Translations under genes and position numbers: made by a program
The notes under the pieces: model-generated
The model's database searches: none
The model's input: only the letters and a program-made list of their open reading frames with translations
What the model was told of the DNA's origin: nothing
Assembly (NCBI GenBank): GCA_001767075.1
Contig: MEKX01000067.1
Coordinates: 383-64,382, forward strand
From: Acidobacteria bacterium RIFCSPLOWO2_12_FULL_54_10
GTDB lineage: Bacteria > Acidobacteriota > Terriglobia > 2-12-FULL-54-10
Direction of reading: 5' to 3'
Length of the DNA: 64,000 bases
Shown here: piece by piece, positions 9,704 through 62,140 of the stretch
How the letters are laid out: each line of letters opens with the position of its first letter
How positions within the stretch are numbered: the first letter of the stretch is position 1

Positions 9704-10279
9704 TTATTTGCGAAATTCGCCGGCTAGCAAATCCTGCACTTGGTCAGAAAAAGTTAGAAATTGAATTGGCTTGAACATATAGTAGCAACCGCTGCTATCC
9801 AGAAACTCTTTCATGGAATTACTTTTGTCACCGGTAAGAAAGAGTATTCTTTGTGGCGGCAACAATGCGTTGTCCCGAATATGGCTATATAGTTCCTTAC
9901 CTGTCATTCCAGGCATGTGAATGTCGCAAATCATAAGATCAAATTCCTGTGTTGACAACTTGCTGAGTGCGTCTTTTGCATTATCGGCAATCTGGATATC
10001 GGCTTTCCAGGTATCTAGGACTTTTTTCAGAAGTGTAATGGTTAAATCATCATCATCTACAACTAAAATACTTCTAGGGCTCTCAAGGATTGGTTCCTCT
10101 TCATCTTTATATGTAACCGGATTTACGGATGCCCAATATTGGGGAGTTGTGCAATAGGTACAATGAAATTGCAATAACCTGCCCTCAGCCAAAGTACGTA
10201 TCTGTGATCGATTAAGAGAAAGCGATTTCTCCATTTTGCAGATAGAGCAACGCATTAATATGTCTTTGGTATCCAGCAT
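9704..10279 (-). CDS. response regulator receiver protein with N-terminal C4 zinc ribbon
   Basis: CSIC...CTYC ribbon then REC domain (ILVVDDDDL, phospho-acceptor-context LMICDIHMPGMTG, FLTGDK). Confidence 0.7.
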   Translation of the reverse strand: MLDTKDILMRCSICKMEKSLSLNRSQIRTLAEGRLLQFHCTYCTTPQYWASVNPVTYKDEEEPILESPRSILVVDDDDLTITLLKKVLDTWKADIQIADNAKDALSKLSTQEFDLMICDIHMPGMTGKELYSHIRDNALLPPQRILFLTGDKSNSMKEFLDSSGCYYMFKPIQFLTFSDQVQDLLAGEFRK

Positions 10280-10314
10280 TTATTTGCTCCCCGGTCGCAA
10301 TTATAGCAAAATAG

Positions 10315-10342
10315 TTTCTAATCTGGTGATTGATTTCTAATC
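10315..10342. repeat. 9-bp direct repeat TTTCTAATC x2 (19-bp period) in the divergent promoter region
   Basis: Exact copies at 10315-10323 and 10334-10342, between the response-regulator gene and the ATPase gene. Confidence 0.4.
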
Positions 10343-10375
10343 GAAATTACAGCCTATGAAGTTAATGGAAACACC

Positions 10376-11545
10376 ATGGTAAGTCGAGATAAACCTCCTC
10401 TAGTTCAACGTTTTACAAATGTGCATCTGGAAAATTGGAGAAACTTTCGCTCCGTTGATGTTGGTTTGACAAGACGAGTTTTCTTGGCAGGTGCAAATGC
10501 ATCGGGGAAATCAAATTTCCTCGATGTCTTCCGTTTTCTACAGGGTCTTGTTTCCGTGGGTGGAGGTTTCCAGGCGGCGATTCGCAAAAGGGGTGGTATT
10601 TCTCGCTTGGGATGCCTCGTAGCAAAAAAGAACCCTGAAATTCTGATCCATGTGAAAACTGCAAACAAGACATCAAAAGGACAGTGGGAATACGAATTAC
10701 AATTTACCCAAAATAACCGCCGCAAAATGCCGATCATATGGAGCGAGCGAGTAATACGCAACGGTGAGCAAATATTAAATCGCCCGCTGGATTCGGATAT
10801 TGCCGATCCTGAGAGAATGACTCAAACATATCTTGAGCAGGTCAATGTAAACCGTGAGTACCGGGCGCTTGCGGACTTTTTTCGATCCATCCGATATCTT
10901 CATATCATCCCAGAAATAGTGCGTGAACCAGACCGTTCCGGCGGGCGACGCAATGATCCTTATGGTGGAGACTTCCTCGATCAAGTTGCAAAGACACCGC
11001 CCGCAATTCGCAAACAGCATCTTACAAAAATTCGTGAGGCTTTGTCTGTTGCAATCCCACAATTGAAAGCACTCGAGTTCTGGAGGGATGCGCGAGGTGT
11101 TCCTCATCTGCGAGGAAACTACAAGCATTGGAAACCGATTGGTGTTTGGCAAACCGAAGAACAATTTTCAAACGGGACATTGCGATTGATTGGTTTGCTA
11201 TGGGCAATTTTGGACGGTAACGGTCCGCTCATCTTAGAGGAACCGGAGTTGTCTTTGCATTCCGATGTTGCCAGACACCTCCCCCAGATGTTCGCTAAGG
11301 TCCAGCAACGCACTGGACGGCAATTCCTAATTTCTACCCATTCCAATGAGCTTCTTCAGGATGAAGGCATAGGACTGAATGAGTTATTGTTATTAGAACC
11401 CACGCCGCGAGGCACGACCATTCGACAGGCAGGCGATTTCGCAGGTATACAGGCAATGATCAAAGGCGGAACAAGTTTAGCTGAGGCAGCACTGCCTAGA
11501 ACCCGTCCTCCGAACGCCCAGCAGCTTGCTCTCTTCGGTGAATGA
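10376..11545 (+). CDS. ABC/AAA_21-type ATPase (OLD/AbiL/PARIS-class ATPase component)
   Basis: Walker A FLAGANASGKSN, signature-like FSNGTLRLIGLL, Walker B/D-loop PLILEEPELSLH, H-loop LISTHSNELL. No transmembrane or substrate-binding domain. Confidence 0.75.
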   Translation: MVSRDKPPLVQRFTNVHLENWRNFRSVDVGLTRRVFLAGANASGKSNFLDVFRFLQGLVSVGGGFQAAIRKRGGISRLGCLVAKKNPEILIHVKTANKTSKGQWEYELQFTQNNRRKMPIIWSERVIRNGEQILNRPLDSDIADPERMTQTYLEQVNVNREYRALADFFRSIRYLHIIPEIVREPDRSGGRRNDPYGGDFLDQVAKTPPAIRKQHLTKIREALSVAIPQLKALEFWRDARGVPHLRGNYKHWKPIGVWQTEEQFSNGTLRLIGLLWAILDGNGPLILEEPELSLHSDVARHLPQMFAKVQQRTGRQFLISTHSNELLQDEGIGLNELLLLEPTPRGTTIRQAGDFAGIQAMIKGGTSLAEAALPRTRPPNAQQLALFGE

Positions 11546-11596
11546 TTTCAATTTAGACCTGATTCCCAATGTCACGTTTGCTCAGGAGCGCTGGTT

Positions 11597-12259
11597 TTGA
11601 ATCGTTCACATAAAACTATTGTTTATGGAGCTGTGGAAGGTTTGGTGGATGAAGCAGTCTTTCGTGTATTGGTCCATCTAGCAGGCGGTGCGCATGGCCC
11701 TGTATTCGGAAGACATGGCAAAGAGTATTTGAGGAAAAATCTTGCTGGGTATAACTTAGCTGCACAGACTGCCCCCTGGGTTGTCCTGGTTGATCTGGAC
11801 CACGATTCGGATTGTCCTCCTCCATTCCGAAATTCGTGGCTTCCAAATCCATCTTCTAGCATGTGCTTTCGGATTGTCGTGCGCGAGGTGGAAGCTTGGC
11901 TGCTCGCCGACCGGGAGCGTATCGCTAATTATTTGGGCATTCCGCGACGATTGGTGCCATCGGAACCAGAACTGGTTCACGACCCCAAAAAACTGATGAT
12001 TCGTTTAGCAATGCATTCTCGGCATCGGCGTATTCGATATGAAATGGTTCCGCATCCAGGGAGCGGTCGCGAAGTAGGGCCAGCGTACAATTCTAGACTC
12101 ATTGAATACGTAGAAAACAAGAATCGCGGATGGCGACCTGAGATCGCTGCCCGACACTCAGAAAGCCTGGCGCGATGCATGCATCGCCTAAATAATCTCT
12201 TGAAACAAAATATCGATAATAGAACAGTAATTCGCAGTCCTGAAGTTGCCTATTACTGA
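11597..12259 (+). CDS. TOPRIM-like (DUF4276-like) putative nuclease partner of the ATPase
   Basis: TTG start preceded by AGGAG at 8-nt spacing. N-terminal VYGAVEGLVDEAVF (conserved Glu) and VVLVDLDHDSD (DxD) arranged as in TOPRIM. Lies 51 nt downstream of the ATPase on the same strand. Confidence 0.6.
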   Translation: MNRSHKTIVYGAVEGLVDEAVFRVLVHLAGGAHGPVFGRHGKEYLRKNLAGYNLAAQTAPWVVLVDLDHDSDCPPPFRNSWLPNPSSSMCFRIVVREVEAWLLADRERIANYLGIPRRLVPSEPELVHDPKKLMIRLAMHSRHRRIRYEMVPHPGSGREVGPAYNSRLIEYVENKNRGWRPEIAARHSESLARCMHRLNNLLKQNIDNRTVIRSPEVAYY

Positions 12260-12867
12260 AGTTGCGATGTAGGAACCGTGACGGGATGCGCTTGCTCAAA
12301 GGCTTGGATATGCTTTTCCTGTTTCAGGATATAACCTAGCTGGTCAACTCCCTCGAGCAGACATTTCTTTGAAAAATTGTCTATCGGGAACTCCACAGAA
12401 CGTCCATTGGGCAGCTTCACGGATTGGCTAGCTAGATCGACCGTTAACTCCATTGCAGGATTCTTCTCAGCCAATTCAAACAACTCGGAGCACGTGCTCG
12501 CCGGCAGCTCCACGGGTAATAAGCCGTTTTTCAAAGCGTTGCTTCTGAAAATATCCGCAAATGACAGGCTGATAATTGCGCGAAATCCAAACGCCATTAA
12601 AGTCCACGGAGCATGTTCTCGTGAACTGCCTGTGCCAAAATTCTTCCCAACCAGTAATATTTTTGCACCCTTAGCTCGTGTCTGATTCAGGATGAAATCT
12701 AGTCGCGGTTTGCCTGCAGAATCAAACCGCCAGTCATGGAAGCAGTATTGTTCCATGTTCGCTTTATCCGTTATTTTCAAGAAGCGCGCAGGAATAATAA
12801 TATCCGTGTCGATGTTTTCATTGGGCAATGGAACTACACGGCTGGTGAACGAATTGACTGGTTCCAC
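12253..12867 (-). CDS. leuD: 3-isopropylmalate dehydratase small subunit
   Basis: Full-length LeuD-like sequence (IDTDIIIPARFLK, GKNFGTGSSREHAPW). Confidence 0.85.
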   Translation of the reverse strand: MEPVNSFTSRVVPLPNENIDTDIIIPARFLKITDKANMEQYCFHDWRFDSAGKPRLDFILNQTRAKGAKILLVGKNFGTGSSREHAPWTLMAFGFRAIISLSFADIFRSNALKNGLLPVELPASTCSELFELAEKNPAMELTVDLASQSVKLPNGRSVEFPIDNFSKKCLLEGVDQLGYILKQEKHIQAFEQAHPVTVPTSQLQ

Positions 12868-18149: not shown

Positions 18150-19135
18150 TGTTCTAAACTCCCGACCGGAGATTCCGGCGCCTCTTCCATCTCATGCTCT
18201 AATGATTCCTTTGTCGTCAACTGGAGGAAGATATCCTCCAGACTCATGCCTAGGGGTCGCAATTCCATCAACCCCCAGCCTGATTCCACAACGGCTCGCG
18301 CGATTTCCCTGCGCAAATCCTTCCCATGGCTCATTTGAACCGATAATTCCACTTTTCCGTCGTGCGTTACAGACGCTGCCACTTCTCGAATTCCATCCAT
18401 ACTCGATACTTTTTCTTGAATTTCAGCCTGTGGTCCGTCGACAACCAGACGCAAAGTATCAAATCCCTGTAAGCGTGCTGTCAAATTTTCCGGGGTATCT
18501 TCTGCGACAAGCCGCCCATTGTTGATAATCATGACTCTATGACAAGTGTTGGCAGCCTCCGGCAAAATATGTGTGCTCAATATGATCGTGTGTTCGCCGG
18601 CCAAGCTTAGGATCAGCTTCCGCGTTTCAATAATTTGCTTGGGATCTAGTCCAGCGGTAGGTTCATCGAGAACCAAAATATCAGGGCTGTTGATCAGTGC
18701 GACGGCAAGGCCCACTCTTTGCCGATATCCCTTAGAAAGATGCCCCACAATTTTCTTGCGTACATCCGTGATAGCCGTCTTTTCTGCTACTTCTTCCATC
18801 CGCTGTTGTAGATCAGACTTTTCCACACCCTTGATACGGCCTGCAAATTCTAGCATTTCATCCACGCGCATGTCGGTATATAAAGGTGGTGTTTCCGGTA
18901 AATAACCTACGCGCTTTTTGACCTCCAGCGGGTCCTGCATTACGTTAAATCCTGCTACGGAAACATTCCCGGATGTGGGAGGCATATACCCGGTAATCAC
19001 TCGCATGGTTGTAGTTTTACCAGCACCGTTGGGACCGAGGAACCCTAGAATTTCGCCCTTTTTTACGGAAAAGTGTAGATTATCCACCGCCACCGTATGT
19101 CCGAATTTTTTTGTTAATCCTTGAACCTCAATCAC
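18146..19135 (-). CDS. gldA: ABC transporter ATP-binding protein (GldA-like)
   Basis: Walker A GPNGAGKTT, signature LSKGYRQRVGLA, Walker B ILVLDEPTAGLD, plus a C-terminal extension typical of GldA/NosF-type ATPases. Confidence 0.8.
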   Translation of the reverse strand: MIEVQGLTKKFGHTVAVDNLHFSVKKGEILGFLGPNGAGKTTTMRVITGYMPPTSGNVSVAGFNVMQDPLEVKKRVGYLPETPPLYTDMRVDEMLEFAGRIKGVEKSDLQQRMEEVAEKTAITDVRKKIVGHLSKGYRQRVGLAVALINSPDILVLDEPTAGLDPKQIIETRKLILSLAGEHTIILSTHILPEAANTCHRVMIINNGRLVAEDTPENLTARLQGFDTLRLVVDGPQAEIQEKVSSMDGIREVAASVTHDGKVELSVQMSHGKDLRREIARAVVESGWGLMELRPLGMSLEDIFLQLTTKESLEHEMEEAPESPVGSLEQ

Positions 19136-19512
19136 CTATTTCCCCTCCATTTACCGCAAGCTTCATATATTCTTCGGGATGTTCGAAGATAAACAATCCG
19201 ATTCAATTTTTGGTCGATTGGACTTCCTTTAGAATATCAAATTCTCTTGGTCTATGCACCAACAGAACTACAGGGTTTTAAGTATTATTATCAATATAAA
19301 TCTAGTAGAGCATATATTAGATGCGTTTATACAATTTAATGATCAAATTAAAATGATTAAAGACGCGAGAAATTGTAATTTGGTTGCAATTAAATAATGC
19401 AATACGGTTCCTGAGCCAGATATTAATCCCGGCGATTCACTACCCCACCTTGTCCATTGAATTTATTGAAGTTATAATATACCTAGCTTTACAGCTAAAG
19501 GGGGTTCCTGCA

Positions 19513-19815
19513 TTGCCGCTTTTCGAATATGAATGCTCGGCTTGTCATCGCCGTTTTGAACTTATTCATAAATATTCAGATAATCCTTCAAGAAAATGTA
19601 TCCATTGTGGCGGTAAAGCAACACGGCTTATCTCGTCTTCAGCGATCCAGTTTAAAGGAACTGGCTGGTACGTCACTGACTATGCTCGAAAAAGTTCCGA
19701 GGAATCACCTCGCCGCAGCAAAAACAAAGCAAGCGCAACGCAGGAGCCATCCACTACATCGACTACTGAAACTACTCAAGCTAAACCCACCAAGACCGAC
19801 ACATCAACCCCATGA
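19513..19815 (+). CDS. FmdB-family zinc-ribbon regulatory protein
   Basis: Starts M(TTG)PLFEYECSACHRRFE...CIHCGG, then a low-complexity S/T-rich tail. Confidence 0.6.
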   Translation: MPLFEYECSACHRRFELIHKYSDNPSRKCIHCGGKATRLISSSAIQFKGTGWYVTDYARKSSEESPRRSKNKASATQEPSTTSTTETTQAKPTKTDTSTP

Positions 19816-19873
19816 GGGTCTTCAAGCATTCGTACTAATTAGGAAGAAAGAACTTAGGAGATTAATCGGTGCG

Positions 19874-20107
19874 CTACTCGCTACTCTTTGGTGGATCTGG
19901 ATTCTGTTCGTTGCGACGATCGCTGCTTCGTCTATCATGACCTTGCCGTCGATCAATTGTTACGTAAGCCCATTCGGTTACTCCGCGACAAGTTACGCAA
20001 TGTTTGCTCAATGTTTTTCCAGAAGTTATCCCCTCGGCGACACCCTCCTCCACGAACATACCGTGCCGCGCTCCGCAACTTTCGCAAGTCATTAACATGC
20101 TAGGCAT
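19874..20107 (-). CDS. small zinc-ribbon protein (two CxxC pairs), hypothetical
   Basis: CESCGARHG...CVTCRG followed by a basic Arg/Ser-rich tail. Convergent with the FmdB gene. Confidence 0.35.
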   Translation of the reverse strand: MPSMLMTCESCGARHGMFVEEGVAEGITSGKTLSKHCVTCRGVTEWAYVTIDRRQGHDRRSSDRRNEQNPDPPKSSE

Positions 20108-20276
20108 AGGGAGAGTATAGCATTACAATGGCATCGCTAGTCTAGGTCTGCATGTCTATTGAATTCACATTGACCCAATTCGATTTTAAGTATTAAATTG
20201 TTTCATGTTTTGATGATTTAGATGAATGCAAATCGCTGAAATGCTTTTATTAGAACATCGCTTCCGGAGGGAAAAC

Positions 20277-22178
20277 ATGTCAAAAAAAATTAGTGCGCTC
20301 TTTGCTCTAGTGTGTTGGATCGGACTTTCGGCCAACTCCTGGGCACAAGGATATCAAAGTCTTGAAATGGTTCTTTATAATGGCAAAATTGTAACGGTCG
20401 ATGACCATAGCTACACGTCAAATATAGGAACCATTGCTCAAGCAATCCACATCAAAGACGGCAAAGTATTGCATGTTGGAACCAACGACCAGATTCGCCC
20501 AATGGCTGGAGCCGGGGTCAAGTCGGTCGATCTGAAGGGAAAGACTGTTATTCCAGGAATGATTCTTACGCATGAACATCCTTATGACTGGAATCCAGTA
20601 GAACCCTGGCCCGTGAAAGCAGTTTTGGGTAAAGATGACAAGGTCATAGTTCGATTTTTGGAAGGCAGCCCGGAAGAAAATATCCAAGCATTTCCTAAAA
20701 CTTTAACTGAAACTGTGGCCAAGTCTAAGCCTGGTCAATGGATCTACATCGTATTTACCTTCGGCAAGAATTATGAATGGTCCACTGGCGGCAACATTGG
20801 CATGGGTCGGGGAGGCATGGATTCCAAAGTATTTAATATCATCCTCGAGAAAAGAATCACCAAAGAGATGCTGGACGCTGCCGCACCCAATAATCCGATT
20901 CTTCTCCGGGATGTTTTCACCACCATGATGTTTAATCAGAAAGGATTGGATGAAAGCAGGAAAATTTTCCCCGAGAAAGACATCAATACCATAAAAGATG
21001 CAGATGGCATCGGCGGAGCCAACGAAATGCGCTGGGCTTTTTCGGATGTAGTCATGCATGACCGAATGGCGGATTTACAAGAAATCATCCGTTTAGGGCA
21101 TGAATGGTGGGCCGGATACGGAATGTCGGGGTATTCTTCCAACACATATGCGCCATCAACGCACAAAGTTTATGGTGATCTTGAAGCGAGAGGACTGATG
21201 TCCTTGCGCGTGGCTTGGACTTGGAATTGGCGTGCGGGCTATTATTACCCGGATGAATATTTTCTGTACGACTTGGCAAACAGGCTGGGTAAAGGTACAG
21301 ATTATTATTGGAATGCAGGTGGCAGAAATGGCGCAGGCGGGAATTGCACCACAGCAGTACCGCTCAAGCCGCAACCAATTGTGCGAGCCGCAGGCGGTGG
21401 TGAACTAGCCGGTTGCACGTATGAGCCCGGCTCCAGGAATGCCCTATTGCTTTATGACTGGATTAAAGCGGGAAATCGATATGCCGGAGCTCACCATGGC
21501 GGAGACAAAGATGTCGATTACGTCATGGATATCATCGAAAAAGCCAGTAAAGATGCTGGCATGACGATTGAGCAAATACGGGCAAAACGCCATTCGGTTG
21601 ACCATAGCGGGATGTTCCCTCGTCCGGATCAAGTAACGCGCATGAAAAATCTCAATTTGGCTGCCGACGGCAATGCGTTTGAGATTTTCCAAGCTGCGCC
21701 AGCCGTGTTTGAAACCTATGGTGAAAGAGCTGTTGGTTGGGTCGTTCCCAAAAAGCGGCTGAATGAAGCGCAGATTCTTAATTCATTTGAGATGGATCGT
21801 GCTTTAGGATCAACGGTACTTACATTCTTTGACGGTCTCACTTGGTTTCAGAATCGAAAATCCTGGGACGGCAAAGTCTATGGCGCGGACCAAGCGATAG
21901 ATCGTGCGACGACGCTAAAGGTCGCTACTTACCGCGGAGCTGAATTCTCACTGAAGGAGAATCAGTGGGGTTCTCTCGAACCAGGGAAATGGGCCGACCT
22001 GCTCGTATTGGATAAAGATTTCCTTGCCTCGTCCATCGATGACTTCCAAAAAACCAGAGTACTCATGACAGTTTCTGGCGGCCGAATTATTCATTTGGTT
22101 CCATCTTTAGCCCGCGAGATTGGAGTGCAGCCAGCAGGCGCTATGGTGACTTTGAACGGCCCGGCGGCTCAATGGTAA
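20277..22178 (+). CDS. secreted amidohydrolase-3 family metal-dependent hydrolase (paralogue 6 of the family at 54-64 kb)
   Basis: ATG at 20277 preceded by GGAGG. Signal peptide ALFALVCWIGLSANSWAQ. HxH metal motif PGMILTHEHP and C-terminal NAFEIF.../DLLVLDKDF blocks shared with the tandem copies. Confidence 0.75.
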   Translation: MSKKISALFALVCWIGLSANSWAQGYQSLEMVLYNGKIVTVDDHSYTSNIGTIAQAIHIKDGKVLHVGTNDQIRPMAGAGVKSVDLKGKTVIPGMILTHEHPYDWNPVEPWPVKAVLGKDDKVIVRFLEGSPEENIQAFPKTLTETVAKSKPGQWIYIVFTFGKNYEWSTGGNIGMGRGGMDSKVFNIILEKRITKEMLDAAAPNNPILLRDVFTTMMFNQKGLDESRKIFPEKDINTIKDADGIGGANEMRWAFSDVVMHDRMADLQEIIRLGHEWWAGYGMSGYSSNTYAPSTHKVYGDLEARGLMSLRVAWTWNWRAGYYYPDEYFLYDLANRLGKGTDYYWNAGGRNGAGGNCTTAVPLKPQPIVRAAGGGELAGCTYEPGSRNALLLYDWIKAGNRYAGAHHGGDKDVDYVMDIIEKASKDAGMTIEQIRAKRHSVDHSGMFPRPDQVTRMKNLNLAADGNAFEIFQAAPAVFETYGERAVGWVVPKKRLNEAQILNSFEMDRALGSTVLTFFDGLTWFQNRKSWDGKVYGADQAIDRATTLKVATYRGAEFSLKENQWGSLEPGKWADLLVLDKDFLASSIDDFQKTRVLMTVSGGRIIHLVPSLAREIGVQPAGAMVTLNGPAAQW

Positions 22179-23614: not shown

Positions 23615-24202
23615 ATGAATGCAACAAAAGATATTTCTCTAGGTTTACATACAAAGATGGAGAAACTAGAGGCGAAACGGAACGGCCAGGTTTTACATAC
23701 GCCGGTTCTCGTTCTAAATGCTACTTATGAACCAGTCAATGTATGTGCCGCCAGACGAGCAATCGTGCTGATTTTGAATGGAGTTGCATTACCAGAAGAA
23801 GTTTCCCATCGACAGGTAAAATCGCCGAGCAGGATCATGCAGGTGCCTAGCGTTATTCGTCTGCTTGAGTATCGTCGGATTCCACATCAGGCACGGGCGT
23901 TATCACGAAAAAATATCCTGATTCGCGATCACTACACCTGCCAATTCTGTGCGCGGACACTGGTTGCCGCAGAATTAACGCTTGACCATATCATTCCTCG
24001 CTCGCAAGGCGGAAAATCGGCTTGGGAAAATCTGGTTGCGTGTTGTTATTCTTGCAACAATCACAAAGGAGATCGCACGCCCGAACAGGCATCCATGAAG
24101 TTACTGCGCCAGCCGCGACCGTTTAATCTGCACACCAGCCGACATCTGATGCGATTAATGGCATCCGGTGAAGTCCTGTGGCGCAAGTATCTATTTTTTT
24201 AG
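23615..24202 (+). CDS. HNH endonuclease family protein
   Basis: CQFC...LTLDHIIPRSQGG...WENLVACCYSCNNHKG HNH/zinc-finger nuclease motif. Confidence 0.75.
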   Translation: MNATKDISLGLHTKMEKLEAKRNGQVLHTPVLVLNATYEPVNVCAARRAIVLILNGVALPEEVSHRQVKSPSRIMQVPSVIRLLEYRRIPHQARALSRKNILIRDHYTCQFCARTLVAAELTLDHIIPRSQGGKSAWENLVACCYSCNNHKGDRTPEQASMKLLRQPRPFNLHTSRHLMRLMASGEVLWRKYLFF

Positions 24203-25225
24203 ATTTCCGATTGAATTTTTGATTTTTTGGTTTAAGTGTTTTTCTGTTTGTAGCGCAATAGCAGACAAACGATCACCACATGCTCCGCCTGTAGCAAGTG
24301 CGGTTTCCGCAGCTCTGCTTGCGTACTCCAATCCTAAGGAATCCTGCCCGCTTCGGCCTGCCTGAATCGCTGTAGCCAGCGCATAGAGTGCGTTGGATGG
24401 ATACTTATCAGAAAGCTCCTTTAACATGGCCAGCGAGACGATTAGATAGTTTTCCTGAATGGAATAAATATGCGCTAGTTCGTACTGCGCCTCCACGGCA
24501 ACCAGTATCGAATGTTGGCTGGCAGTTCGAAGCTGCTCCAAGCCTTTACTGCGATCCCCTGCCGGAATGCCCAGAAAGAAGCGAACCAGTTTCAGCATGG
24601 GCGAAAGAATATCAGCGTAATAGTTGTATGCTCCCAGGCCAAAAGAGGCCTCTGGCATCAGGCTAGAATCCTCTTCTACAGCTTCCAGAAGTTCGGCGCG
24701 CATCTTCTTGCCTTCGGTTGCTGATTTCAATCGATCTCCACGAAAAGTGAATAAACGGGCCTGAATGCCGTGAGATAACCCTTTGTACAACGCGCCGACT
24801 GCGGCGTTTTCGCCATTACGGTTCATATTTTCGCTGGAAATAAGCGCACGCTGTATAGACTCAGCAAATTGTTTGTCATAAGAACTAGAGCCATGTTGGG
24901 CAACGTGCCAAACCTCGCGTGGAGTGATGTGAGCCGTCTCGCAGTAAATCAATCCCCAGTATGCTTCTGCGACCACGAGTGAAGACAATGGCTGATCTGC
25001 AAATTGATTCTGCAATTCCGTTGCGGAAGAGATGACCTGAGCGTATTTACCCTGACGAATCGCCTCGACGCTTGTTTTTAGTTGGTCAGGAATATCCAGG
25101 ACATTCGCAGCATGTGAATAACGCCCAATGGATGCGGTCGTTAGAAAAATAAAAATGAATGCTATCGACGTGCTACACCGGGCCCAGCCTTGATATTGAC
25201 AGGCCAACAAACGAACTGCCCGCAT
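24191..25225 (-). CDS. hypothetical secreted/anchored protein
   Basis: Long ORF. Start placed at the internal MRAVRLL with signal-like leader, because the ORF-track start would overlap the divergent methyltransferase start. Confidence 0.4.
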   Translation of the reverse strand: MRAVRLLACQYQGWARCSTSIAFIFIFLTTASIGRYSHAANVLDIPDQLKTSVEAIRQGKYAQVISSATELQNQFADQPLSSLVVAEAYWGLIYCETAHITPREVWHVAQHGSSSYDKQFAESIQRALISSENMNRNGENAAVGALYKGLSHGIQARLFTFRGDRLKSATEGKKMRAELLEAVEEDSSLMPEASFGLGAYNYYADILSPMLKLVRFFLGIPAGDRSKGLEQLRTASQHSILVAVEAQYELAHIYSIQENYLIVSLAMLKELSDKYPSNALYALATAIQAGRSGQDSLGLEYASRAAETALATGGACGDRLSAIALQTEKHLNQKIKNSIGNLKK

Positions 25226-25288
25226 AAGGAAGCTATTGAGCTCCAATGTTAAGATTACATTTCGTATCATGGCCATATAGGAAAGAAT

Positions 25289-25972
25289 ATGAGGCAAATT
25301 CATTCCAACGAAATAAAGGAAACTTCAGCGGCAAAGCTAAATATCCGCCAAATCAGCGATGCTTATACGCGCCTCGCACCATTGTACGGTATTTGGGAAT
25401 GGGTAGCTGAAGGAAGTGCACAGCGAACTGCCATGGAGATGGCTGCGATCCAAAATGGTGAATCCCTCCTGGAAGTGGCAGTAGGCCTGGGCACATCGCT
25501 CAATATTCTTAGGAAACAAAACCCTAATGGAAGAAATATAGGAATGGATTTAACCTCTGTAATGCTGCGTAGAACTCGCAAGCACTTGATGATCGACCAG
25601 AATGTCAATCCTGCGCTTTGCCAAGGCGACGCTATGGTTATGCCATTTGCTGATGCAAGTTTCGATTTGATTTATTGCACCTTTCTGCTCGATTTGCTGC
25701 CCATACCTGATATTCATGTAGTGATCCGGGAAATGCGTCGAGTGTTGCGTCCTTCGGGTAGGGTAGTCATAGCGCATCTAAGCATGAATCATCGCTCGTT
25801 TAATTGGTTCTGGATTCTTCTTTACTCGAGTATCCCAATGTTGCTTGGAGGATGCAGGCCGATTCAACTGACAAACTGGCTGCCCCATGATGGGTTTATG
25901 GTCCAACAGGTACAAGTTGTTTCGCAGTGGGGGATTCCCAGCGAAATTATTTTAGCAACACCTAATGGATGA
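25289..25972 (+). CDS. class I SAM-dependent methyltransferase (UbiE/Type-11-like)
   Basis: Motif I LEVAVGLGTS, D/E loop IGMDLT, motif post-II DASFDLIYCTF, LRPSGRVVI. RBS AGGAAAG. Confidence 0.7.
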   Translation: MRQIHSNEIKETSAAKLNIRQISDAYTRLAPLYGIWEWVAEGSAQRTAMEMAAIQNGESLLEVAVGLGTSLNILRKQNPNGRNIGMDLTSVMLRRTRKHLMIDQNVNPALCQGDAMVMPFADASFDLIYCTFLLDLLPIPDIHVVIREMRRVLRPSGRVVIAHLSMNHRSFNWFWILLYSSIPMLLGGCRPIQLTNWLPHDGFMVQQVQVVSQWGIPSEIILATPNG

Positions 25973-50853: not shown

Positions 50854-51558
50854 TTAATCGCTTATTTGAAAGCCAATCGTTTGTTGCACGGAATCGCCCA
50901 AATAAATTTCCACCTGCCATACTCCTGTTTCTAAACCTGCTTGCAGGGAGAATACTGTTATGGCAATAAACCCGTTCGTTTTCGCGACAATTCTTACAGG
51001 TTCAGCGCGTAATCTCTTTAACTCTCCATCTGGCCCCCTCAAGCGCACGGCATAGGCATTATCCCCAAGTTTTCCACTCCACTGGCTATAGACAACAATC
51101 CTTTTGTCTTCTGTCATCGAAAATGCCGTGCTGGGGTTCGCTGGTTCGGAATCGCGCACATCTTTATAAAGCCCGGCTTGTATTAGTGCCGGTTTTTCCG
51201 CTAGCCAGGGTAAGGTGGTTGTATCCTTGAGGAAACTATACAGAGCAAATAAAATAAATACCGCCGGAACCAAAAACTTTGTCCACGCTGGCGGTTCCAT
51301 GCGCTTGGGCCCATCTGGAGTTGTTTCCGGCTCCATTTCCTCCGGCTCGATATCCCTAACTTCAGGGACCTGCTCTTCAATGGTTTGCTTTCTTGGAGCT
51401 TCTTGAGAACGCCATTGCCTGGGCAAATCTTCTCGCCCGGCGGGTTTATCCGCTTCCTTGATCACTGCCGGTGGACTGGCGCTACGAACTAAAGCTCCGC
51501 AAAAGTTGCAAACAGCACGATCCTTCTGCACGCTCTTGCCGCAAGTTGGGCATTTCAT
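50854..51558 (-). CDS. zinc-ribbon and TM-containing hypothetical protein
   Basis: MKCPTCGK...CNFCG ribbon, Pro/Glu-rich linker, one TM helix, C-terminal domain. Confidence 0.5.
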   Translation of the reverse strand: MKCPTCGKSVQKDRAVCNFCGALVRSASPPAVIKEADKPAGREDLPRQWRSQEAPRKQTIEEQVPEVRDIEPEEMEPETTPDGPKRMEPPAWTKFLVPAVFILFALYSFLKDTTTLPWLAEKPALIQAGLYKDVRDSEPANPSTAFSMTEDKRIVVYSQWSGKLGDNAYAVRLRGPDGELKRLRAEPVRIVAKTNGFIAITVFSLQAGLETGVWQVEIYLGDSVQQTIGFQISD

Positions 51559-51631
51559 CGAATCTTCACCTGATTCCTTTGCATTAGCTTCCCTATGCTA
51601 CAATTTTGCATTATCGGTCGTCGAGTATCTT

Positions 51632-53929
51632 ATGAAAATCCTTCACCGGCAGTTTCTCAAAGAAGTCGCAGCTCACGGACTGCTGGGACTCATACTTTTT
51701 ACTTCTGTTCTTTTTCTGCGGGACACCACTCGCTTGTTGGAATTGCTTTTGCGTGAAACCGCCGTATGGCAGGACTTGGTTTCGCTGTTGCTGATGGCAT
51801 TCCCTCCTTTATTGACCTTTACGGTCCCGGTAGCTGTTGTTGTGGGTTTGGCGGTGACGCTCAGCCGCATGGCGAGTAATAATGAAATCACCGCGATGCG
51901 CGCCTGCGGTTTAGGTGTCAGGAGCTTAGCCCTGCCTGTCAGTATCGTCATAACCATCGGTTGCATCTCCGGAGTCATTCTTTCGGTGTGGCTTGCTCCA
52001 TTAGCAAGTCAAAAGAGAGTAGAGGTCGAACGGCGCATTGGCCTCCGCCAGATTCCCTTGCGGTTGCAGCCGCGGGTCTTTGAAGAGAATTTCCCAAACT
52101 ATATTCTCTACGTTCGCGACGTCACTAGCGGTTCGAATCCTCTTTGGAAGGGCATTTTTCTAGCCGATGTCTCAAATCCTCAAAAACCCAAGGTGATTCT
52201 GGCAAATGATGGATATCTTCTCAGCAATCCTGAGGAGAACAGATTTCAGCTTCATTTATTGAATGGAAGCAGTCACGAGATCGGCGGATCGCCGGACGAA
52301 TATTCTATCGTCACATTTTCGGAGATGGATTTACCCGTCAACATTCCGCCACCGCAAGTTCCATCCGTGAAACCTATCGGACGAAGGGCTACTCCAGAAC
52401 TTCACGCAGTGTCACCCAATGCCCCGGATTGGCTGGATGCAAACATTGAATTCCACCGGCGTTTTGCGCTCCCCATCGCGGCGCTTTCTCTCGCCTTAGT
52501 CGCAATTTCCTTCAGCCTCTTTTCCATTCGGGGTGGAAAATCTTCCGGCATGGTGCTGACCGTTCTGATGGTCCTGGTCTATTACACGATTTTCACCGGC
52601 GGCATCAGCATGGCTCGCCAGCAAGTGGTCCCTCCTTGGATTGGGGTTTGGGGCGCAAATTTCCTGTTCGGCTTGCTCGGCATCATTTTATTAATGCGCG
52701 CTGACCGCATAAACTTCTCGATGGATTGGTACGAACGAATTGCCAACCTTCCCGCTACTGCATCCGCATACTTTTATCGCATATATCGGCGCGATCCCCT
52801 GTCTGTCCAAACTCTGCCTCACTTCCGGCCAAACATTCGGCGAACACTGGACCGCTATGTGGCGAAAAGTTTTCTTGCCTATCTGGCTATCATCCTTTCA
52901 GCCCTCGTTTTGCTGACCGAGATCGTTACTTTCTTTTTGGACTTACTGAATGACGTGTTGAAAAATCAAATTCCCGCCAGCATGGTTTTCAGCTACTTCT
53001 TCCATCTGACGCCTTATCTCATTTATGCAACCATGCCATTGGCCGTGCTGGTAGCGGTCCTGGTCAGTATCGGCATCCTGAATCAGCGCAACGAAATCGT
53101 TGCCGCAAAAGCTTCGGGTATCAGCGTGTACCGCTTGGCTATGCCCATTTTTGTTCTTGCCGCTGGTCTTGGATCATTGCTTTTTCTGTTTGAGCATTTC
53201 TATGTGCCGTCCGCGAATCGAGTCCAGGACGCGATTCGAAACCGCATCAAAGGCAGGCCTGCTCAAACCTATTTGCGCCCAGACCAACGATGGATCATGG
53301 GTGAAGATTCCAGAATTTATTATTCCAATTTTTTCGCGCCAGAGGAAAACGTTATGGGTGGGGTCACGGTCTTTGAGATGGACCGGGAGAATTTTTCTCT
53401 TACTCGCCTCATATCAGCCTCCAGAGCAACTTGGGAGCCTTCTTTGTCTGGATGGATTTTCCAGTCAGGCTGGGTCCGGGAATTTGACCAAAACGCAGTG
53501 GTCCATTTCAATGATTTCCGCGTACAGCTTTTTCAGGACTTGCACGAGCCTCCTTCGTATTTCCTCAAGGAAGTCAAACAGTCCATCCAGATGAATTTTA
53601 TAGAGCTTGGGCGTTACATCCAGGAACTTCGCCAAAGTGGGTTTGATGTCACTTCACTCTCCGTGCAGTTTCACAAGAAGTTTTCCTTCCCTGCTTTTAC
53701 GCTGATCATGGCCTTGATCGGTTTGCCATTTGCTGTTTCCAACGAGAGAAAGGGCGCCGTTACTGGCGTTGCCGTTGCTTTGGGCATCGCTTTAGTTTAT
53801 TGGGGCGCCAGCAGTCTTGCCGAGGCTTTGGGAAATCTGAACGAACTGCCCCCGGTTTTAGCCGCATGGTCACCAAATCTTCTTTTTGGCCTCGGCGGAA
53901 TTTATCTATTCTTAAAGATTAAAACTTAA
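51632..53929 (+). CDS. fused LptF-LptG-like permease (YjgP/YjgQ family duplicated)
   Basis: Two consecutive LptF/LptG-like modules, each with N-terminal TM helices, a periplasmic beta-jellyroll region and C-terminal TM helices. Second module starts near YRRDPLSVQ...RYVAKSFLAYL. ATG at 51632 chosen to avoid overlap with the convergent gene. Confidence 0.7.
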   Translation: MKILHRQFLKEVAAHGLLGLILFTSVLFLRDTTRLLELLLRETAVWQDLVSLLLMAFPPLLTFTVPVAVVVGLAVTLSRMASNNEITAMRACGLGVRSLALPVSIVITIGCISGVILSVWLAPLASQKRVEVERRIGLRQIPLRLQPRVFEENFPNYILYVRDVTSGSNPLWKGIFLADVSNPQKPKVILANDGYLLSNPEENRFQLHLLNGSSHEIGGSPDEYSIVTFSEMDLPVNIPPPQVPSVKPIGRRATPELHAVSPNAPDWLDANIEFHRRFALPIAALSLALVAISFSLFSIRGGKSSGMVLTVLMVLVYYTIFTGGISMARQQVVPPWIGVWGANFLFGLLGIILLMRADRINFSMDWYERIANLPATASAYFYRIYRRDPLSVQTLPHFRPNIRRTLDRYVAKSFLAYLAIILSALVLLTEIVTFFLDLLNDVLKNQIPASMVFSYFFHLTPYLIYATMPLAVLVAVLVSIGILNQRNEIVAAKASGISVYRLAMPIFVLAAGLGSLLFLFEHFYVPSANRVQDAIRNRIKGRPAQTYLRPDQRWIMGEDSRIYYSNFFAPEENVMGGVTVFEMDRENFSLTRLISASRATWEPSLSGWIFQSGWVREFDQNAVVHFNDFRVQLFQDLHEPPSYFLKEVKQSIQMNFIELGRYIQELRQSGFDVTSLSVQFHKKFSFPAFTLIMALIGLPFAVSNERKGAVTGVAVALGIALVYWGASSLAEALGNLNELPPVLAAWSPNLLFGLGGIYLFLKIKT

Positions 53930-54018: not shown

Positions 54019-55920
54019 TCAGTATTGCGGTGATTTGTAAACCGTCTTGCCTCCCAGCGATGTCAGAAGCGTCTTGATCGTCTTGATCTGGTCTGACGGA
54101 ATCGTGAAGTAGTCCTTGTCGATCACGATAAAGTCGGCCAGTTTCCCGACCTCCAGCGACCCGATGTTCTTTTCATTAAACAACTGCTCGGCGCCCCAGA
54201 TCGTTGCCGCTTTCATCAAGTCGGTGCGGTCCATGGATTCGCGCACATTGTACGTCAATCCATCGTGCGGCATCTTTCGGCTTACAAAGAACTCGATGAA
54301 GCCCCAGATGTTCCCATCCCACTGCTCTGGATAGTCCATATCCTTCGCGTAGTATGCCACTTTGTTCAAATGAGCATCGGTATTGAATACCGGGTGCCCG
54401 CCGGCATCCTGGTAGCTCTTCATCGGCGCCATCCAGGTCATCACCTGTTCCCCGTAAACCTTCAGGAACTCGCCGCCCTTGATGTTGCCCTGCACTTGGT
54501 ATCCATTAAATGCCGGCATCACGCCGTAATCGGCCAATCGCTTGATATGATCCGGACGAATGATCGGGTTGTGCTCCGTGCCGATGCGCAGCTCCCGCAC
54601 CTGTGCCACGGTCATTCTGCCGCTTTTCACTTCCTCATCCAGCAATTTCAACAAGGAGTCGTAGGTGCCATCACTGTACGTATGCAGAAAGCTCAGTCTC
54701 AGGCCCGATTGAATGGCTGATTTGACCTGTTCGAAACCCGCTGCTGCATTGTAATCGGTTGGCTGAGCGTTGCAATCCCGGCGAATTCCACTCGGTGCGT
54801 TCGGGTTGATCGGCTTTGATGTCGTGCAGGTTAAGCCAGATTCCCAACCTTCGTTGGAAACACCAGCGTTCCAAATGTAGTCATTGCCAATGCCTCTGAA
54901 ATCGCCTACATTTCGGTAAAAGAACGCTAACCCCCCGCCTGGTTGATTTACTTCCGGCTGATTACCCCACAGCGTTCCCAGGTACCAGCCCCAGCGGACC
55001 GGCATCTCGCCGCTCTGATAGAGCAGATTGTAGGTCTTCATGATGGATGGCGACCCGTAATAGTGATTCCCGAACGTGGTCACGCCTTGCGCCGATACGC
55101 ATTCCAGAAGTTCACGCTTCAGGAAGTCAACTTTTTCCGTCTCGCGTCCTTTCATCAGGATGTCGAAGACCGTCGCTGTGCGCGCCGTCAACCCCGCCGC
55201 TTCCCAACCCAATATTTTCAGGAACTCGTCTTTCGCTTTCGTATTGTGTGCTTCCGGGCCGATGGCTTCGCTGCTGAATACCAGCAACGGATTATTCGGC
55301 GAAAGGGTGTCCAGATATTCGCGTGTTATCGTTCCGCTGCTCCCGTCCTGCTGGCGAAACAGCGCATGGACGATCTTCCGTGATTCCGGCAGTGTTTTGC
55401 CGCCGAATACCGATGCCCAAATCCATTTGCCTGGCCCCATTTGCGCAGCCCGGTCGCGAACCCCTTTTTCCAGGTTCCTCAATACCTCAGCCTGCTCGGT
55501 GCCTAACGCATAAGTGATCTTCAGTTGCGGATCGTTATATCGCTTGGAGGTTGCCTCGCCTTCCGATCCCAGCCAGTGTTCCACTGCCCACAGATGCGGA
55601 TGCGTGTGCCCGTCAATCAATCCGGGCAGAACAATGCGCCCTTTCGCATCTACTACTTCCGTATTCGGTCCTGCTAAAAATCGCATTTCATCGTTCGTTC
55701 CACGGGCGATAATGCGATTATTTTTCACCGCAAATGCTTGCACTTGCGTGTTGCTGTTGTCCATGGTGTGAACTCGCCCATTCACCACAACCAGTTCCGG
55801 ATACGCTTTCAGTAAATCCAGCTTTCTTGTCGCATCGTCTTGCGCTTGCAGCAGCACTGGCATCAGTAAAGCAAACATCGCCCAAGCCGCTTGATATAAT
55901 TTCCAATTCTTTCTTATCAT
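54019..55920 (-). CDS. secreted amidohydrolase-3 family hydrolase, tandem paralogue 1
   Basis: Start MIRKNWK preceded by AAGGGGG. Signal peptide ...LLMPVLLQAQ. HxH PGLIDGHTHPHLW. C-terminal NTDAHL and GKLADFIVIDKDYFTIP blocks. Confidence 0.8.
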   Translation of the reverse strand: MIRKNWKLYQAAWAMFALLMPVLLQAQDDATRKLDLLKAYPELVVVNGRVHTMDNSNTQVQAFAVKNNRIIARGTNDEMRFLAGPNTEVVDAKGRIVLPGLIDGHTHPHLWAVEHWLGSEGEATSKRYNDPQLKITYALGTEQAEVLRNLEKGVRDRAAQMGPGKWIWASVFGGKTLPESRKIVHALFRQQDGSSGTITREYLDTLSPNNPLLVFSSEAIGPEAHNTKAKDEFLKILGWEAAGLTARTATVFDILMKGRETEKVDFLKRELLECVSAQGVTTFGNHYYGSPSIMKTYNLLYQSGEMPVRWGWYLGTLWGNQPEVNQPGGGLAFFYRNVGDFRGIGNDYIWNAGVSNEGWESGLTCTTSKPINPNAPSGIRRDCNAQPTDYNAAAGFEQVKSAIQSGLRLSFLHTYSDGTYDSLLKLLDEEVKSGRMTVAQVRELRIGTEHNPIIRPDHIKRLADYGVMPAFNGYQVQGNIKGGEFLKVYGEQVMTWMAPMKSYQDAGGHPVFNTDAHLNKVAYYAKDMDYPEQWDGNIWGFIEFFVSRKMPHDGLTYNVRESMDRTDLMKAATIWGAEQLFNEKNIGSLEVGKLADFIVIDKDYFTIPSDQIKTIKTLLTSLGGKTVYKSPQY

Positions 55921-56015
55921 CTGCGCCCCCTTATATAAATTCCTGAAATGCTTAGGGCAGAATGACCGTTGTGAATTCGGCATTCTGCCCTAAGAAATTA
56001 ATTAAAAGCTAACTC

Positions 56016-57941
56016 CTAATAAGCAGCATCCTTGTAGACCGTCTTGCCTCCCACGGATGTGAGCAGCGTTTTGATGGTTTTGATCTGATCGCCAGGAATC
56101 GTGAAGTAATCCTTGTCGATCACGATAAAGTCGGCGAGTTTCCCGACTTCCAGCGACCCGATGTTCTTTTCGTTCAAGAGCTGCTCGGCGCCCCAGATCG
56201 TCGCGGCCTTCATCAGGTCCGTGCGATCCATGGCTTCGTCGCGGTTGTAGTAAAGCCCGTCGTTGGGCATTCTGCGTGTAACGAAAAACTCGATGAACCC
56301 CCAGATATTGCCATTCCATTCTTCTGGATAGTCCATGTCCTTTGCGAAATAAGGCACCTTGCCCAGATGCGCATCCGTATTAAAGACCGGCTTGCCGCCG
56401 TCTTTCAGGTAGGTCTTCATCGGAGCCATCCAGGTCATCACCTGTTCCCCGTAGACTTTCAGGAATTCTCCGCCCTTGATGTCGCCCTGCACCTGATATC
56501 CATTGAATGCCGGCATCATGTTGTAATCCGCCATCCTCTTGAGCTGGTCAGGCCGGATCATGGGGTTGTGTTCGGTACCGATCCGCAAAGCGCGAATCTG
56601 GTCCTTGGTAACCTTGCCGCCAGCCACTGCATCGTCGAGAAGCTTCAGGAGCGAATCGTATGTCCCGTCACTGTAAGTGTGCAGGAAGCTGATGCGCAAA
56701 CCATTTTCCACGGCAGCTTTCACATTTTGATAACCGCCTGCCTTCTCATATTCCGTCGGCTGACTGCCGCAATCGCGCCGCACTCCGCTTTGTGCATTCG
56801 GGTTGATTGGTTTGACCGTCGTGCAGGAAAGTCCCGACTCCCAGGCTTCATTCGACACGCCTGCATTCCAAATGTAATCATTGCCGATGCCCCGGAAATC
56901 GCCCACGTTGCGGTAGAAAAAGTTCAGGTCGCCGCTGTCGTTGCCTGTCGTGTTTATACCAGCTTCCAGTTGGTTGCCCCACAGCGTTCCCAGGAACCAC
57001 GCCCACCGTACCGGCAATTCATTGCGGGACACGAGCAAGTTGTACGTCTTCATGATGGAGGGCGAGCCGTAGTAATGGTTCCCGAAAGTGGTTACGCCCT
57101 GCGGCACCACGCACTCCAGCAGTTCCCGCTTCAGGAAATCCACTTTGTCGTTGTCCCTGCCCTTCAGCAGAATGTCGTATAGAAGAGACGTCCGGGTGGT
57201 TAATCCTGCAGCTTCGTACCCTATCATGCGGATGAATTCGTCCTTTGCCCTGGTGTTGTGCACTTCCGGACCAATTGCCTCGCTGCTGTGCATCAGCATC
57301 GGGTTATTCGGAGCTATCGTATCCAGATACTGCCGCGTCAGAGTGCCGGACTGCCCTCCCGCTTGTTGAAACAGCGGGTAAGTCATTTTGCGTGACTCAG
57401 GAATGTTTTTGCCTCCGAAAGCCGTCACCCAAATCCATTTGCCTGGTCCCACGGCCTGAATTCTCTCCCGTGCCACGCGCTCTATATTTCGCAGAACTTC
57501 TGTGGGGTCGTTGCCCATCGCATATCCAATCTGCAATTGCGGATCGTTGTACCGCTTGGCTGTCGCGTCGCCCACGCCGCCCAGCCAGTGCTCCACGGCC
57601 CACAGGTGCGGGTGCGTATGGCCATCAATTAGCCCCGGCAGCACGATCCGTCCCTTGGCGTCGACCACTTCTGTCTTCGGTCCCGCCAAGAATCGCATCT
57701 CATCGTTTGTTCCGCGGGCGATAATGCGATTGTTTTTTACCGCAAATGCCTGCACCTGCGTATTGCTGTTGTCCATCGTGTGAATGCGCCCGTTCACTAC
57801 AATCAATTCTGGATAAGCATTCAGCAGTTCCAGCTTTCTCGCTGCATCCTGCTGTGCTGCCATCCTCCCCGGCAACGCTAGTACAACCAGCGCCACCACC
57901 AGGGCAAAACGCCAAATCATATTCCGATACCTGCTATGCAT
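56016..57941 (-). CDS. secreted amidohydrolase-3 family hydrolase, tandem paralogue 2
   Basis: Start MHSRYRN preceded by AAGGAGGAAATC. ~80-90% identical to paralogue 1 over long stretches. Confidence 0.8.
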   Translation of the reverse strand: MHSRYRNMIWRFALVVALVVLALPGRMAAQQDAARKLELLNAYPELIVVNGRIHTMDNSNTQVQAFAVKNNRIIARGTNDEMRFLAGPKTEVVDAKGRIVLPGLIDGHTHPHLWAVEHWLGGVGDATAKRYNDPQLQIGYAMGNDPTEVLRNIERVARERIQAVGPGKWIWVTAFGGKNIPESRKMTYPLFQQAGGQSGTLTRQYLDTIAPNNPMLMHSSEAIGPEVHNTRAKDEFIRMIGYEAAGLTTRTSLLYDILLKGRDNDKVDFLKRELLECVVPQGVTTFGNHYYGSPSIMKTYNLLVSRNELPVRWAWFLGTLWGNQLEAGINTTGNDSGDLNFFYRNVGDFRGIGNDYIWNAGVSNEAWESGLSCTTVKPINPNAQSGVRRDCGSQPTEYEKAGGYQNVKAAVENGLRISFLHTYSDGTYDSLLKLLDDAVAGGKVTKDQIRALRIGTEHNPMIRPDQLKRMADYNMMPAFNGYQVQGDIKGGEFLKVYGEQVMTWMAPMKTYLKDGGKPVFNTDAHLGKVPYFAKDMDYPEEWNGNIWGFIEFFVTRRMPNDGLYYNRDEAMDRTDLMKAATIWGAEQLLNEKNIGSLEVGKLADFIVIDKDYFTIPGDQIKTIKTLLTSVGGKTVYKDAAY

Positions 57942-62123: not shown

Positions 62124-62140
62124 GTCATTGCTTCTCTTTC

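Follow-up and report, generated by a model that had tools for sequence, protein, structure and literature searches.

Within a 64,000-nucleotide (nt) stretch of the genome of Acidobacteria bacterium RIFCSPLOWO2_12_FULL_54_10 (assembly GCA_001767075.1, contig MEKX01000067.1; hereafter, the window), we analyzed a pair of adjacent genes, A and B, encoding an ATP-binding cassette (ABC) ATPase followed by a TOPRIM-like protein, and we assign this pair to HEC-01, a candidate defense family described in 2024. We consider it probable that the pair functions as a stand-alone HEC-01 module, in which a small ABC ATPase of the OLD/GajA/AriA/PtuA class would be coupled to a DUF4276 TOPRIM/helical protein carrying a putative OLD-like two-metal nuclease site, with ATP-regulated activity directed against phages or mobile DNA.

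The assignment is carried by the PADLOC profiles. Gene A matched the HEC-01A model (PDLC04180) with an E-value of 1.3e-145 and 483 bits, residues 12-386 aligning to positions 2-380 of the 382-position profile, and gene B matched the HEC-01B model (PDLC04194) with an E-value of 1.4e-61 and 206 bits (residues 9-203 on positions 6-199 of 204). The two genes are adjacent on the same strand, separated by 51 nt, the arrangement expected of HEC-01. The other PADLOC defense models that recognized A (AriA, AbiLi, mad3, GajA and Old) scored far lower, and in the same library B matched HEC-01 models only. Judging from these matches, the pair is a stand-alone, moderately divergent member of HEC-01 rather than an undescribed family. 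The initial annotation of this DNA had proposed a candidate of the AbiL/PARIS/Gabija class that might be an undescribed variant. The pair is not undescribed, since the PADLOC models, from a family already described, cover the exact sub-cluster, nor is it a member of those three systems, since B matches none of their partner models.

HEC-01 (Hma-embedded candidate 01) was reported by Payne et al. (10.1101/2024.01.29.577857) as an ABC ATPase paired with a TOPRIM protein that has a conserved OLD-like metal site, and it is recurrently embedded in Hma defense loci; it is catalogued in PADLOC-DB v2. DUF4276 has been placed in the Toprim superfamily, with the characteristic Glu and DxD (PMC12065111). 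The present pair resembles the described family in that the ABC ATPase precedes the TOPRIM/DUF4276 protein and the OLD-like metal-site residues are conserved in B, too. It differs in standing alone in the core chromosome rather than within an Hma locus, in the 51-nt spacer and separate Shine-Dalgarno sequence preceding B, in the non-conserved C-terminal tail of B, and in its distance from its nearest relatives, which are only 60-67% (A) and 51-62% (B) identical. We found no mechanistic study of HEC-01 in the literature.

Sequence and structure of the two proteins

The product of gene A matched the Pfam families AAA_21 (8.3e-31) and AAA_15 (4.5e-13) and had at least 7985 homologues at E <= 0.001, the best non-self match being 67% identical. 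Among the matches listed, the named sources were Acidobacteria, Alphaproteobacteria, Chloroflexi/Anaerolineae, Pirellulales and Deltaproteobacteria, with identities staying level at 60-65%. Across 35 aligned homologues, G39, N41, A42, G44, K45, S46 and N47 of Walker A, S265, G267, T268, L269 and R270 of the signature-like motif, L287, E288, E289, P290, E291, S293 and L294 of the Walker B/D-loop stretch and S320 and T321 of the H-loop were invariant, whereas H322 was conserved in at least 90% and Q150 was invariant or nearly so. The AlphaFold2 (AF2) model of A (predicted local distance difference test score, pLDDT, 80.4) contains no coiled coil. Its sole internal segment with pLDDT below 50, residues 179-195, includes the invariant P179, R183, P185, R187, S188, G190, D194 and P195, and may represent an interface for a partner or substrate, perhaps ordered only when bound.

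Foldseek comparison of the A model with the PDB retrieved retron/Septu PtuA, GajA, Rad50, an SMC head and TsOLD (E 1e-11 to 1e-13, template modeling score ~0.45-0.54). By sequence, the nearest solved proteins were GajA (4.5e-8), AriA (8e-4) and a retron ATPase. The similarity to GajA does not reach beyond the regions around Walker A and Walker B, with the Walker B stretch of A aligning to that of GajA. The GajA models cover only these two segments of A, and the PADLOC Old and GajA models both score weakly (1e-9 to 1e-12).

Housekeeping and transport functions were considered for A and rejected. In the public record of this groundwater metagenome-assembled genome, the protein (100% identical to A) is labeled 'chromosome segregation protein SMC'; Pfam SMC_N gave 24.7 bits against a threshold of 40, and the NCBIfam models gave 26.3 against a cut-off of 172 (RecF), 8.8 against 729 (SMC) and 18 against 1087 bits (Rad50). 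Because these scores lie far under the cut-offs and the 389-residue protein, as modeled, has no coiled-coil insert, the label is a misannotation, and a role as an SMC, RecF, RecN or Rad50 ATPase was dismissed. An ABC transporter subunit was dismissed likewise: there was no Pfam ABC_tran match, transporter equivalogs gave E > 0.005, and the adjoining genes encode a REC-domain protein and LeuD rather than a permease, in keeping with the lack of transporter context noted in the initial annotation. Thus, on the combined evidence of Pfam, NCBIfam, conservation, the model and its structural matches, A belongs to a class of ABC ATPases found repeatedly in defense systems.

The product of gene B matched Pfam DUF4276 (PF14103) at 18.3 bits (E 0.003), under the gathering threshold of 30.2 bits. 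Within its family, 31 of 36 aligned members matched DUF4276 at E <= 0.01 (best 1.3e-7) and none matched any other family; by these profiles, B probably belongs to a divergent DUF4276 sub-family. The AF2 model of B (pLDDT 88.4, predicted template modeling score 0.85) comprises b1 (residues 8-13), a helix, b2 (32-37), helices, b3 (61-66), a helix, b4 (89-95) and a helical domain. The four-stranded parallel b1-a-b2-a-b3-a-b4 sheet, in which b1 leads to a conserved Glu and b3 to the DxD, has TOPRIM topology, as anticipated for a DUF4276/TOPRIM-type partner.

The two motifs quoted in the initial annotation hold the corresponding acidic residues, E14 and D18 in VYGAVEGLVDE and D66 and D68 in VVLVDLDHDSD. 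In a set of 136 homologues sharing 33-50% identity with B, conservation reached 97% for E14, 100% for D18 and D66, 98.5% for E99 and 99% for both D105 and K131; position 68 is occupied by D in 87% and by N in 12.5%, and E97 is variable. Considered with the invariant ATPase residues of A, these figures show that the motifs are real rather than chance resemblances. The spacing of E14, D18, D66, D68, E99 and K131 mirrors that of E400, E404, D455, D457, E508 and K562 of Bp OLD, in which K562 is the catalytic lysine (PMC6755086). We infer that E97-V98-E99 is equivalent to T506/E508, and K131 to K562.

Structural comparison of the B model yielded matches with 145-150 aligned residues to the C-terminal region of Bp OLD (6nk8, 150 residues), the uncharacterised PH0156 and AriB, and lower-Z matches to GajA (132) and TsOLD (123). 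A Foldseek search of the PDB returned no significant match for B, the Toprim domain of RNase M5 being the only TOPRIM entry listed, and the profile of the B family found no solved relative among PDB sequences. Because of these two results, the structural support for the predicted fold is moderate rather than strong. The residue conservation adds weight, and it accords with the published OLD-like metal site of HEC-01 and the Toprim placement of DUF4276. B is predicted to be an OLD-like metal-dependent nuclease. Overall, the split OLD-like candidate defense architecture originally proposed is borne out by the HEC-01 assignment, by the links of B to OLD, AriB and GajA, and by those of A to the PtuA, GajA, Rad50 and OLD heads.

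The TTG start of B is supported by its N-terminus, which aligns with those of the homologues from column 3, and residues 215-220 at the other end face gaps in >90% of homologues. Among the cysteines of B, C73 (11813-11815), with 98% conservation even among diverse homologues, lies just past the DxD, in the sole low-confidence loop of the model (71-74); conservation of C90 and C194 is restricted to the close sub-family. The positions of all features are collected in Table 1.

Table 1. Features of the gene pair and its flanks, in window coordinates
Feature	Coordinates	Strand	Details	Basis
Gene A	10376..11545	+	389 aa, ATG start; HEC-01A-type ABC ATPase (AAA_21/AAA_15)	ORF list
Gene B	11597..12259	+	220 aa, TTG start; HEC-01B-type DUF4276 protein	ORF list
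Intergenic region between the REC-domain gene (-) and gene A	10280..10375	.	96 nt, AT-rich; presumed promoter region	
A-B spacer	11546..11596	+	51 nt, with Shine-Dalgarno AGGAG	sequence
Walker A / P-loop GANASGKSN	10490..10516	+	A residues 39-47; K45	sequence
Low-confidence, invariant-rich stretch of gene A	10910..10960	+	A residues 179-195	AF2 pLDDT below 50
ABC signature-like motif FSNGTLRLIGLL	11165..11200	+	A residues 264-275	sequence
Walker B and D-loop PLILEEPELSLH	11225..11260	+	A residues 284-295; E288, E289	sequence
H-loop ISTHS	11330..11344	+	A residues 319-323; H322	sequence
TOPRIM glutamate E14, closing strand b1, and D18 four positions on	11636..11650	+	pattern as Bp OLD E400/E404	
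DxD motif D66-L67-D68, end of strand b3	11792..11800	+	model strand 61-66	
E97-V98-E99, start of helix after b4	11885..11893	+	pattern as Bp OLD T506/E508, metal B site; strand 89-95, helix 98-103	
K131, helical domain	11987..11989	+	helix 130-139; candidate counterpart of Bp OLD catalytic K562	
C-terminal tail of gene B	12215..12259	+	non-conserved, ~15 aa past most homologues; ends in leuD overlap	
aa, amino acids; ORF, open reading frame.

Genomic setting and distribution of the pair

The B family returned 1433 matches in a database clustered at 90% identity, the best non-self one being 62% identical; a search of 1.84 billion representatives gave at least 2552 clusters at 50% identity. Among the representatives found, the 150 with the best scores are free-standing proteins, mostly of ~200 aa (range 142-271). 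In all five other genomes examined (loci L018, L020, L026, L027 and L028), A and B homologues are adjacent and in the same order, with unrelated neighbors; they are spaced by -1 to 7 nt in L018, L020 and L026, and B is not intact in the remaining two, being frameshifted in L027 and fragmentary in L028. One homologous pair sits among toxin-antitoxin genes.

Two of these loci carry further features. In L027 (9165-11673 of a 334-kb metagenomic contig), the frameshift falls inside the DLD motif region of the HEC-01B homologue and may reflect either a pseudogene or an error of long-read assembly. The gene is followed, after 90 nt, by one for an RVT_1 reverse transcriptase of 598 aa, which may be a defense-associated enzyme beside HEC-01. 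The L020 locus (19025-20627 of a 271-kb contig) has a gene for a 671-aa AAA_21/AAA_15 protein, the size of a fused OLD/GajA-like protein, ~9 kb from the HEC-01 pair, and a HicAB toxin-antitoxin pair ~4 kb upstream.

At the present locus, the gene order is a diaminopimelate-decarboxylase-type (lysA-type, pyridoxal phosphate-dependent) gene, the REC-domain gene, A, B, leuD and leuC. The elements described in the initial annotation were all found in the sequence as stated: two open reading frames, a 51-nt gap, a TTG start preceded by AGGAG (11584-11588, 8 nt 5' of the TTG), the quoted motifs, and a 7-nt overlap (12253-12259) of the 3' end of B with the convergent leuD frame (12253..12867, minus strand). 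Gene calling on independent assemblies of the same population yielded the identical two genes. A promoter is presumed, from the coordinates of the reading frames, to lie in the region upstream of A, where GC content is ~0.385 over 10000-10399; a sigma-70 consensus scan found no plus-strand site in 10280..10375, and whole-region promoter counts, like those of a terminator scan, were not above shuffled expectation.

The neighborhood of leuD bears on whether the pair is an inserted accessory cassette, as had been suggested. Since the nearest LeuD relatives in a protein search were only 69-72% identical, the lineage is poorly sampled. In the population, all seven contigs that have an identical leuD and extend far enough contain the pair, so that no presence/absence polymorphism was seen among them. 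Four relatives retain ABC_tran, ABC2_membrane, auxiliary-protein, leuC and leuD genes (three of them also a DUF4340 gene) and have different genes past leuD; the pair, the REC-domain gene and lysA are absent from that position in all four. One of these relatives, Acidobacteria bacterium RIFCSPLOWO2_02_FULL_61_28 (GCA_001767035.1; L022 and L026), has the ABC-2/DUF4340/leuCD block without the pair; on a different contig it carries a pair flanked by gatB and a SpoU methylase gene, with an ATPase 65% identical to A. Because relatives keep the leuCD block without the pair, which is thus not universal at this locus, and because its contexts vary, the pair is accessory and non-syntenic, which fits old horizontal spread.

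For the inserted part of the suggestion, the evidence is indirect, consisting of the variable contexts and the lack of conserved synteny, and a clean insertion event is not demonstrated. A LeuD scan of genome contigs returned only two short Anaerolineales contigs, and one of metagenomes returned five loci with LeuD <=70% identical, of which L007 was examined. There was no true empty site, as three long contigs keep the upstream block but differ after leuD; around the pair, the search for flanking repeats or insertion scars gave only chance-level repeats of 12-15 nt, and composition gave no signal of insertion. For a 189-aa frame after leuD in L024, homology to the REC-domain gene was considered but not upheld (E 0.08).

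The REC-domain gene itself (9704-10279, minus strand) is transcribed divergently from A and encodes 191 aa, with ~60 N-terminal residues containing two CxxC pairs (zinc-ribbon-like), then a REC receiver domain, and no output domain. A tie to the pair was rejected: no such gene adjoins the pair in the five homologous loci, and the only one found, in L027, lies ~7 kb off. The gene is probably unrelated to the pair.

The rest of the window is ordinary chromosome, including the trp operon, rpsB-tsf-pyrH-frr, rplM-rpsI, succinate dehydrogenase genes, an ABC-2 exporter block and several amidohydrolase genes, and an Rfam scan of the whole window gave no match. At 54019-63997 (minus strand), five tandem paralogous genes encode Amidohydro_3 proteins of ~620-656 aa (by Pfam for four, the fifth by size and position), with GC content at third codon positions (GC3) of 0.64-0.72, compared with a mean of 0.51 for the window genes. 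At 20226-22178 (plus strand), another Amidohydro_3 gene, the sixth, has an ordinary GC3 of 0.47. The array could be recently expanded or acquired. An 823-aa frame at 51458-53929 (plus strand; 765 aa in the gene call of a same-population assembly) contains two LptF_LptG stretches (E 1.7e-153), and its product is apparently a single-chain fusion of the LptF and LptG permeases. A gene for a 195-aa HNH endonuclease (23615-24202, plus strand) is followed by a gene for a 344-370-aa product without a Pfam match (24191-25303, minus strand) and by one for a UbiE-type S-adenosylmethionine methyltransferase (25289-25972, plus strand).

Possible mode of action and competing explanations

By analogy with split and fused ATPase-TOPRIM systems, the A protein of a stand-alone HEC-01 module would oligomerise, bind the nuclease B and keep it inactive. 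On sensing an infection cue, for example a phage protein, a DNA structure or altered nucleotide levels, A would, through ATP binding or hydrolysis, release or activate B, which would then cut nucleic acid and stop phage replication, possibly at a cost to the cell. It is from this analogy that we infer a physical complex of A with B, a trigger, a substrate and an anti-phage role for the present copy. Because DNA- and RNA-cutting TOPRIM enzymes share the catalytic residues, these residues do not fix whether DNA or RNA would be the target.

Several observations weigh against such a function. The first HEC-01 representative assayed in E. coli gave no protection against any phage used (10.1101/2024.01.29.577857), and another study keeps HEC-01 as an unvalidated candidate. 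The B family was absent from the 50,697 phage records searched, and among plasmids it gave one weak match (34% identity) on a Ralstonia megaplasmid. The mean column identity of A, 77% across the 35 homologues, is unusually strong conservation for a defense gene. The locus contains no defense island, no Hma/MADS genes and no mobile-element genes, no integrase or transposase gene lies near the pair, and the gene content within 10 kb on either side includes no DNA methyltransferase or helicase gene. GC content, GC3 and codon usage of the pair show no anomaly with respect to the window genes (GC 0.478 and 0.487 and GC3 0.428 and 0.416 for A and B, respectively; window gene means 0.493 +/- 0.03 and 0.509 +/- 0.071), in agreement with the initial view that composition is inconclusive.

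The conservation across phyla, the core-chromosome setting, the near absence from phage and plasmid records and the negative assays, together with the presence of the pair in seven of seven population contigs, are what one might see if the pair were a non-immune module of chromosomal nucleic-acid maintenance or repair, or a selfish, toxin-antitoxin-like addiction cassette, resembling defense proteins. We regard this as possible but decidedly the less likely explanation, given that the pair is non-syntenic in relatives and occupies varied loci among unrelated genes, that the closest characterised relatives are all defense proteins, and that the family recurs in Hma loci. Moreover, a later cold-seep study reported protection of E. 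coli by another HEC-01 representative against at least one of the phages T4, T5 and T7 (PMC12881386). The RecF, SMC and Rad50 scores given above stand against a housekeeping role as well, as do the contexts that are rich in toxin-antitoxin genes or have an adjoining reverse transcriptase.

Class 1 (P2 Old, TsOLD) and class 2 (GajA, Bp OLD) OLD proteins share with the pair the ABC ATPase, the TOPRIM and the helical nuclease domain, and B carries E-x3-[E/D], DxD, a Glu after b4 and a helical-domain Lys, as does Bp OLD. A stable A-B complex might therefore nick or degrade DNA directly, gated by ATP or nucleotide levels, as in GajA and the class 1/2 OLD proteins. Among solved proteins, GajA gives A its best sequence match and is also one of its top Foldseek matches, Bp OLD is the best long structural match of B, whose residues reproduce the OLD two-metal set plus lysine, and the metal site reported by Payne et al. 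points the same way. Against this, class 1-3 OLD proteins are all single polypeptides, whereas a stop codon and 51 nt separate the two frames here; no UvrD-like GajB helicase gene adjoins the pair or lies within 10 kb, as would be expected of Gabija; and the residues are common also to RNA-cutting TOPRIM enzymes such as RNase M5. We consider this mode of action possible, though rather doubtful.

A PARIS-like mechanism, in which an ATPase cage would sequester the TOPRIM protein until an anti-restriction protein or similar trigger frees the nuclease to cut host tRNA or other RNA, with abortive infection as the outcome, draws on the same split design: PARIS, the proposed class 4 OLD, pairs the ABC ATPase AriA with AriB, a small DUF4435 TOPRIM effector. 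The ATPases are related, AriA being among the nearest solved proteins and its PADLOC model, an AAA_21-derived and generic one, matching A at 2.3e-28; AriB is among the structural matches of B, and the RNase M5 Toprim domain appears in the non-significant Foldseek list. Nevertheless, B is a DUF4276 protein without an AriB or DUF4435 match in PADLOC or Pfam at E <= 1, and A (389 aa) is ~75 residues shorter than AriA (464 aa), which leaves an AriA-like cage unproven. In addition, PARIS is often phage- or satellite-borne, unlike the B family in the records searched. We therefore judge a PARIS-like mechanism unlikely, if still worth entertaining. AbiL (AbiLi plus AbiLii), another two-gene abortive-infection system with an AAA_21-type ATPase, is more distant: AbiLi matches A at 2.8e-22, far more weakly than HEC-01A and over 209 of 326 profile positions, and B has no AbiLii match.

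The pair might, finally, be a sub-module of the methylation-linked Hma/MADS systems, with a Mad3/Mad4-like function requiring a methyltransferase and a helicase. HEC-01 was discovered inside Hma loci, A is weakly mad3-like (PADLOC 1.4e-14), and Mad4 has been described as a DUF4276 homologue (PMC12065111); DUF4276 TOPRIM domains are paired with AAA_21-type ATPases in both MADS (Mad3/Mad4) and Menshen. However, A scores 56.5 bits on the NCBIfam MAD3 model against a cut-off of 420, B matches no model named mad4, and in Menshen DUF4276 is the C-terminal domain of an NsnC-like protein (NsnC-C), whereas B is free-standing. No DNA methyltransferase or helicase is encoded within 10 kb on either side of the pair, ParB/NsnA-type partners are lacking nearby, and the pairs in L018, L020 and L026 have no DNA methyltransferase or helicase genes beside them. 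At the present locus, this explanation is largely refuted by gene content, and we hold it to be very improbable. A preprint on MANTIS was consulted for Mad3/Mad4 and set aside as having no bearing.

The analysis places a solitary acidobacterial gene pair in HEC-01, a widespread candidate family of disputed activity, corrects the SMC misannotation of A in the public record, and supplies a residue map whose mutagenesis targets are K45 and E288/E289 in A and E14, D18, D66, D68, E99 and K131 in B. Beyond these points it adds little, the family and its ATPase plus TOPRIM logic having been published in 2024. A bolder proposal, which we put forward tentatively and think unlikely to hold in full, is that this highly conserved HEC-01 clade is an autonomous, Hma-independent immune module forming a further split class of OLD-like systems. 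A small ABC ATPase would hold the free-standing DUF4276 TOPRIM protein and, upon infection, let it go to cleave a particular RNA or DNA target, the invariant but unmodeled loop of A (residues 179-195) possibly serving as the sensor or docking site. If true, a mechanism would for the first time be available for this family, which numbers thousands of members among environmental bacteria.

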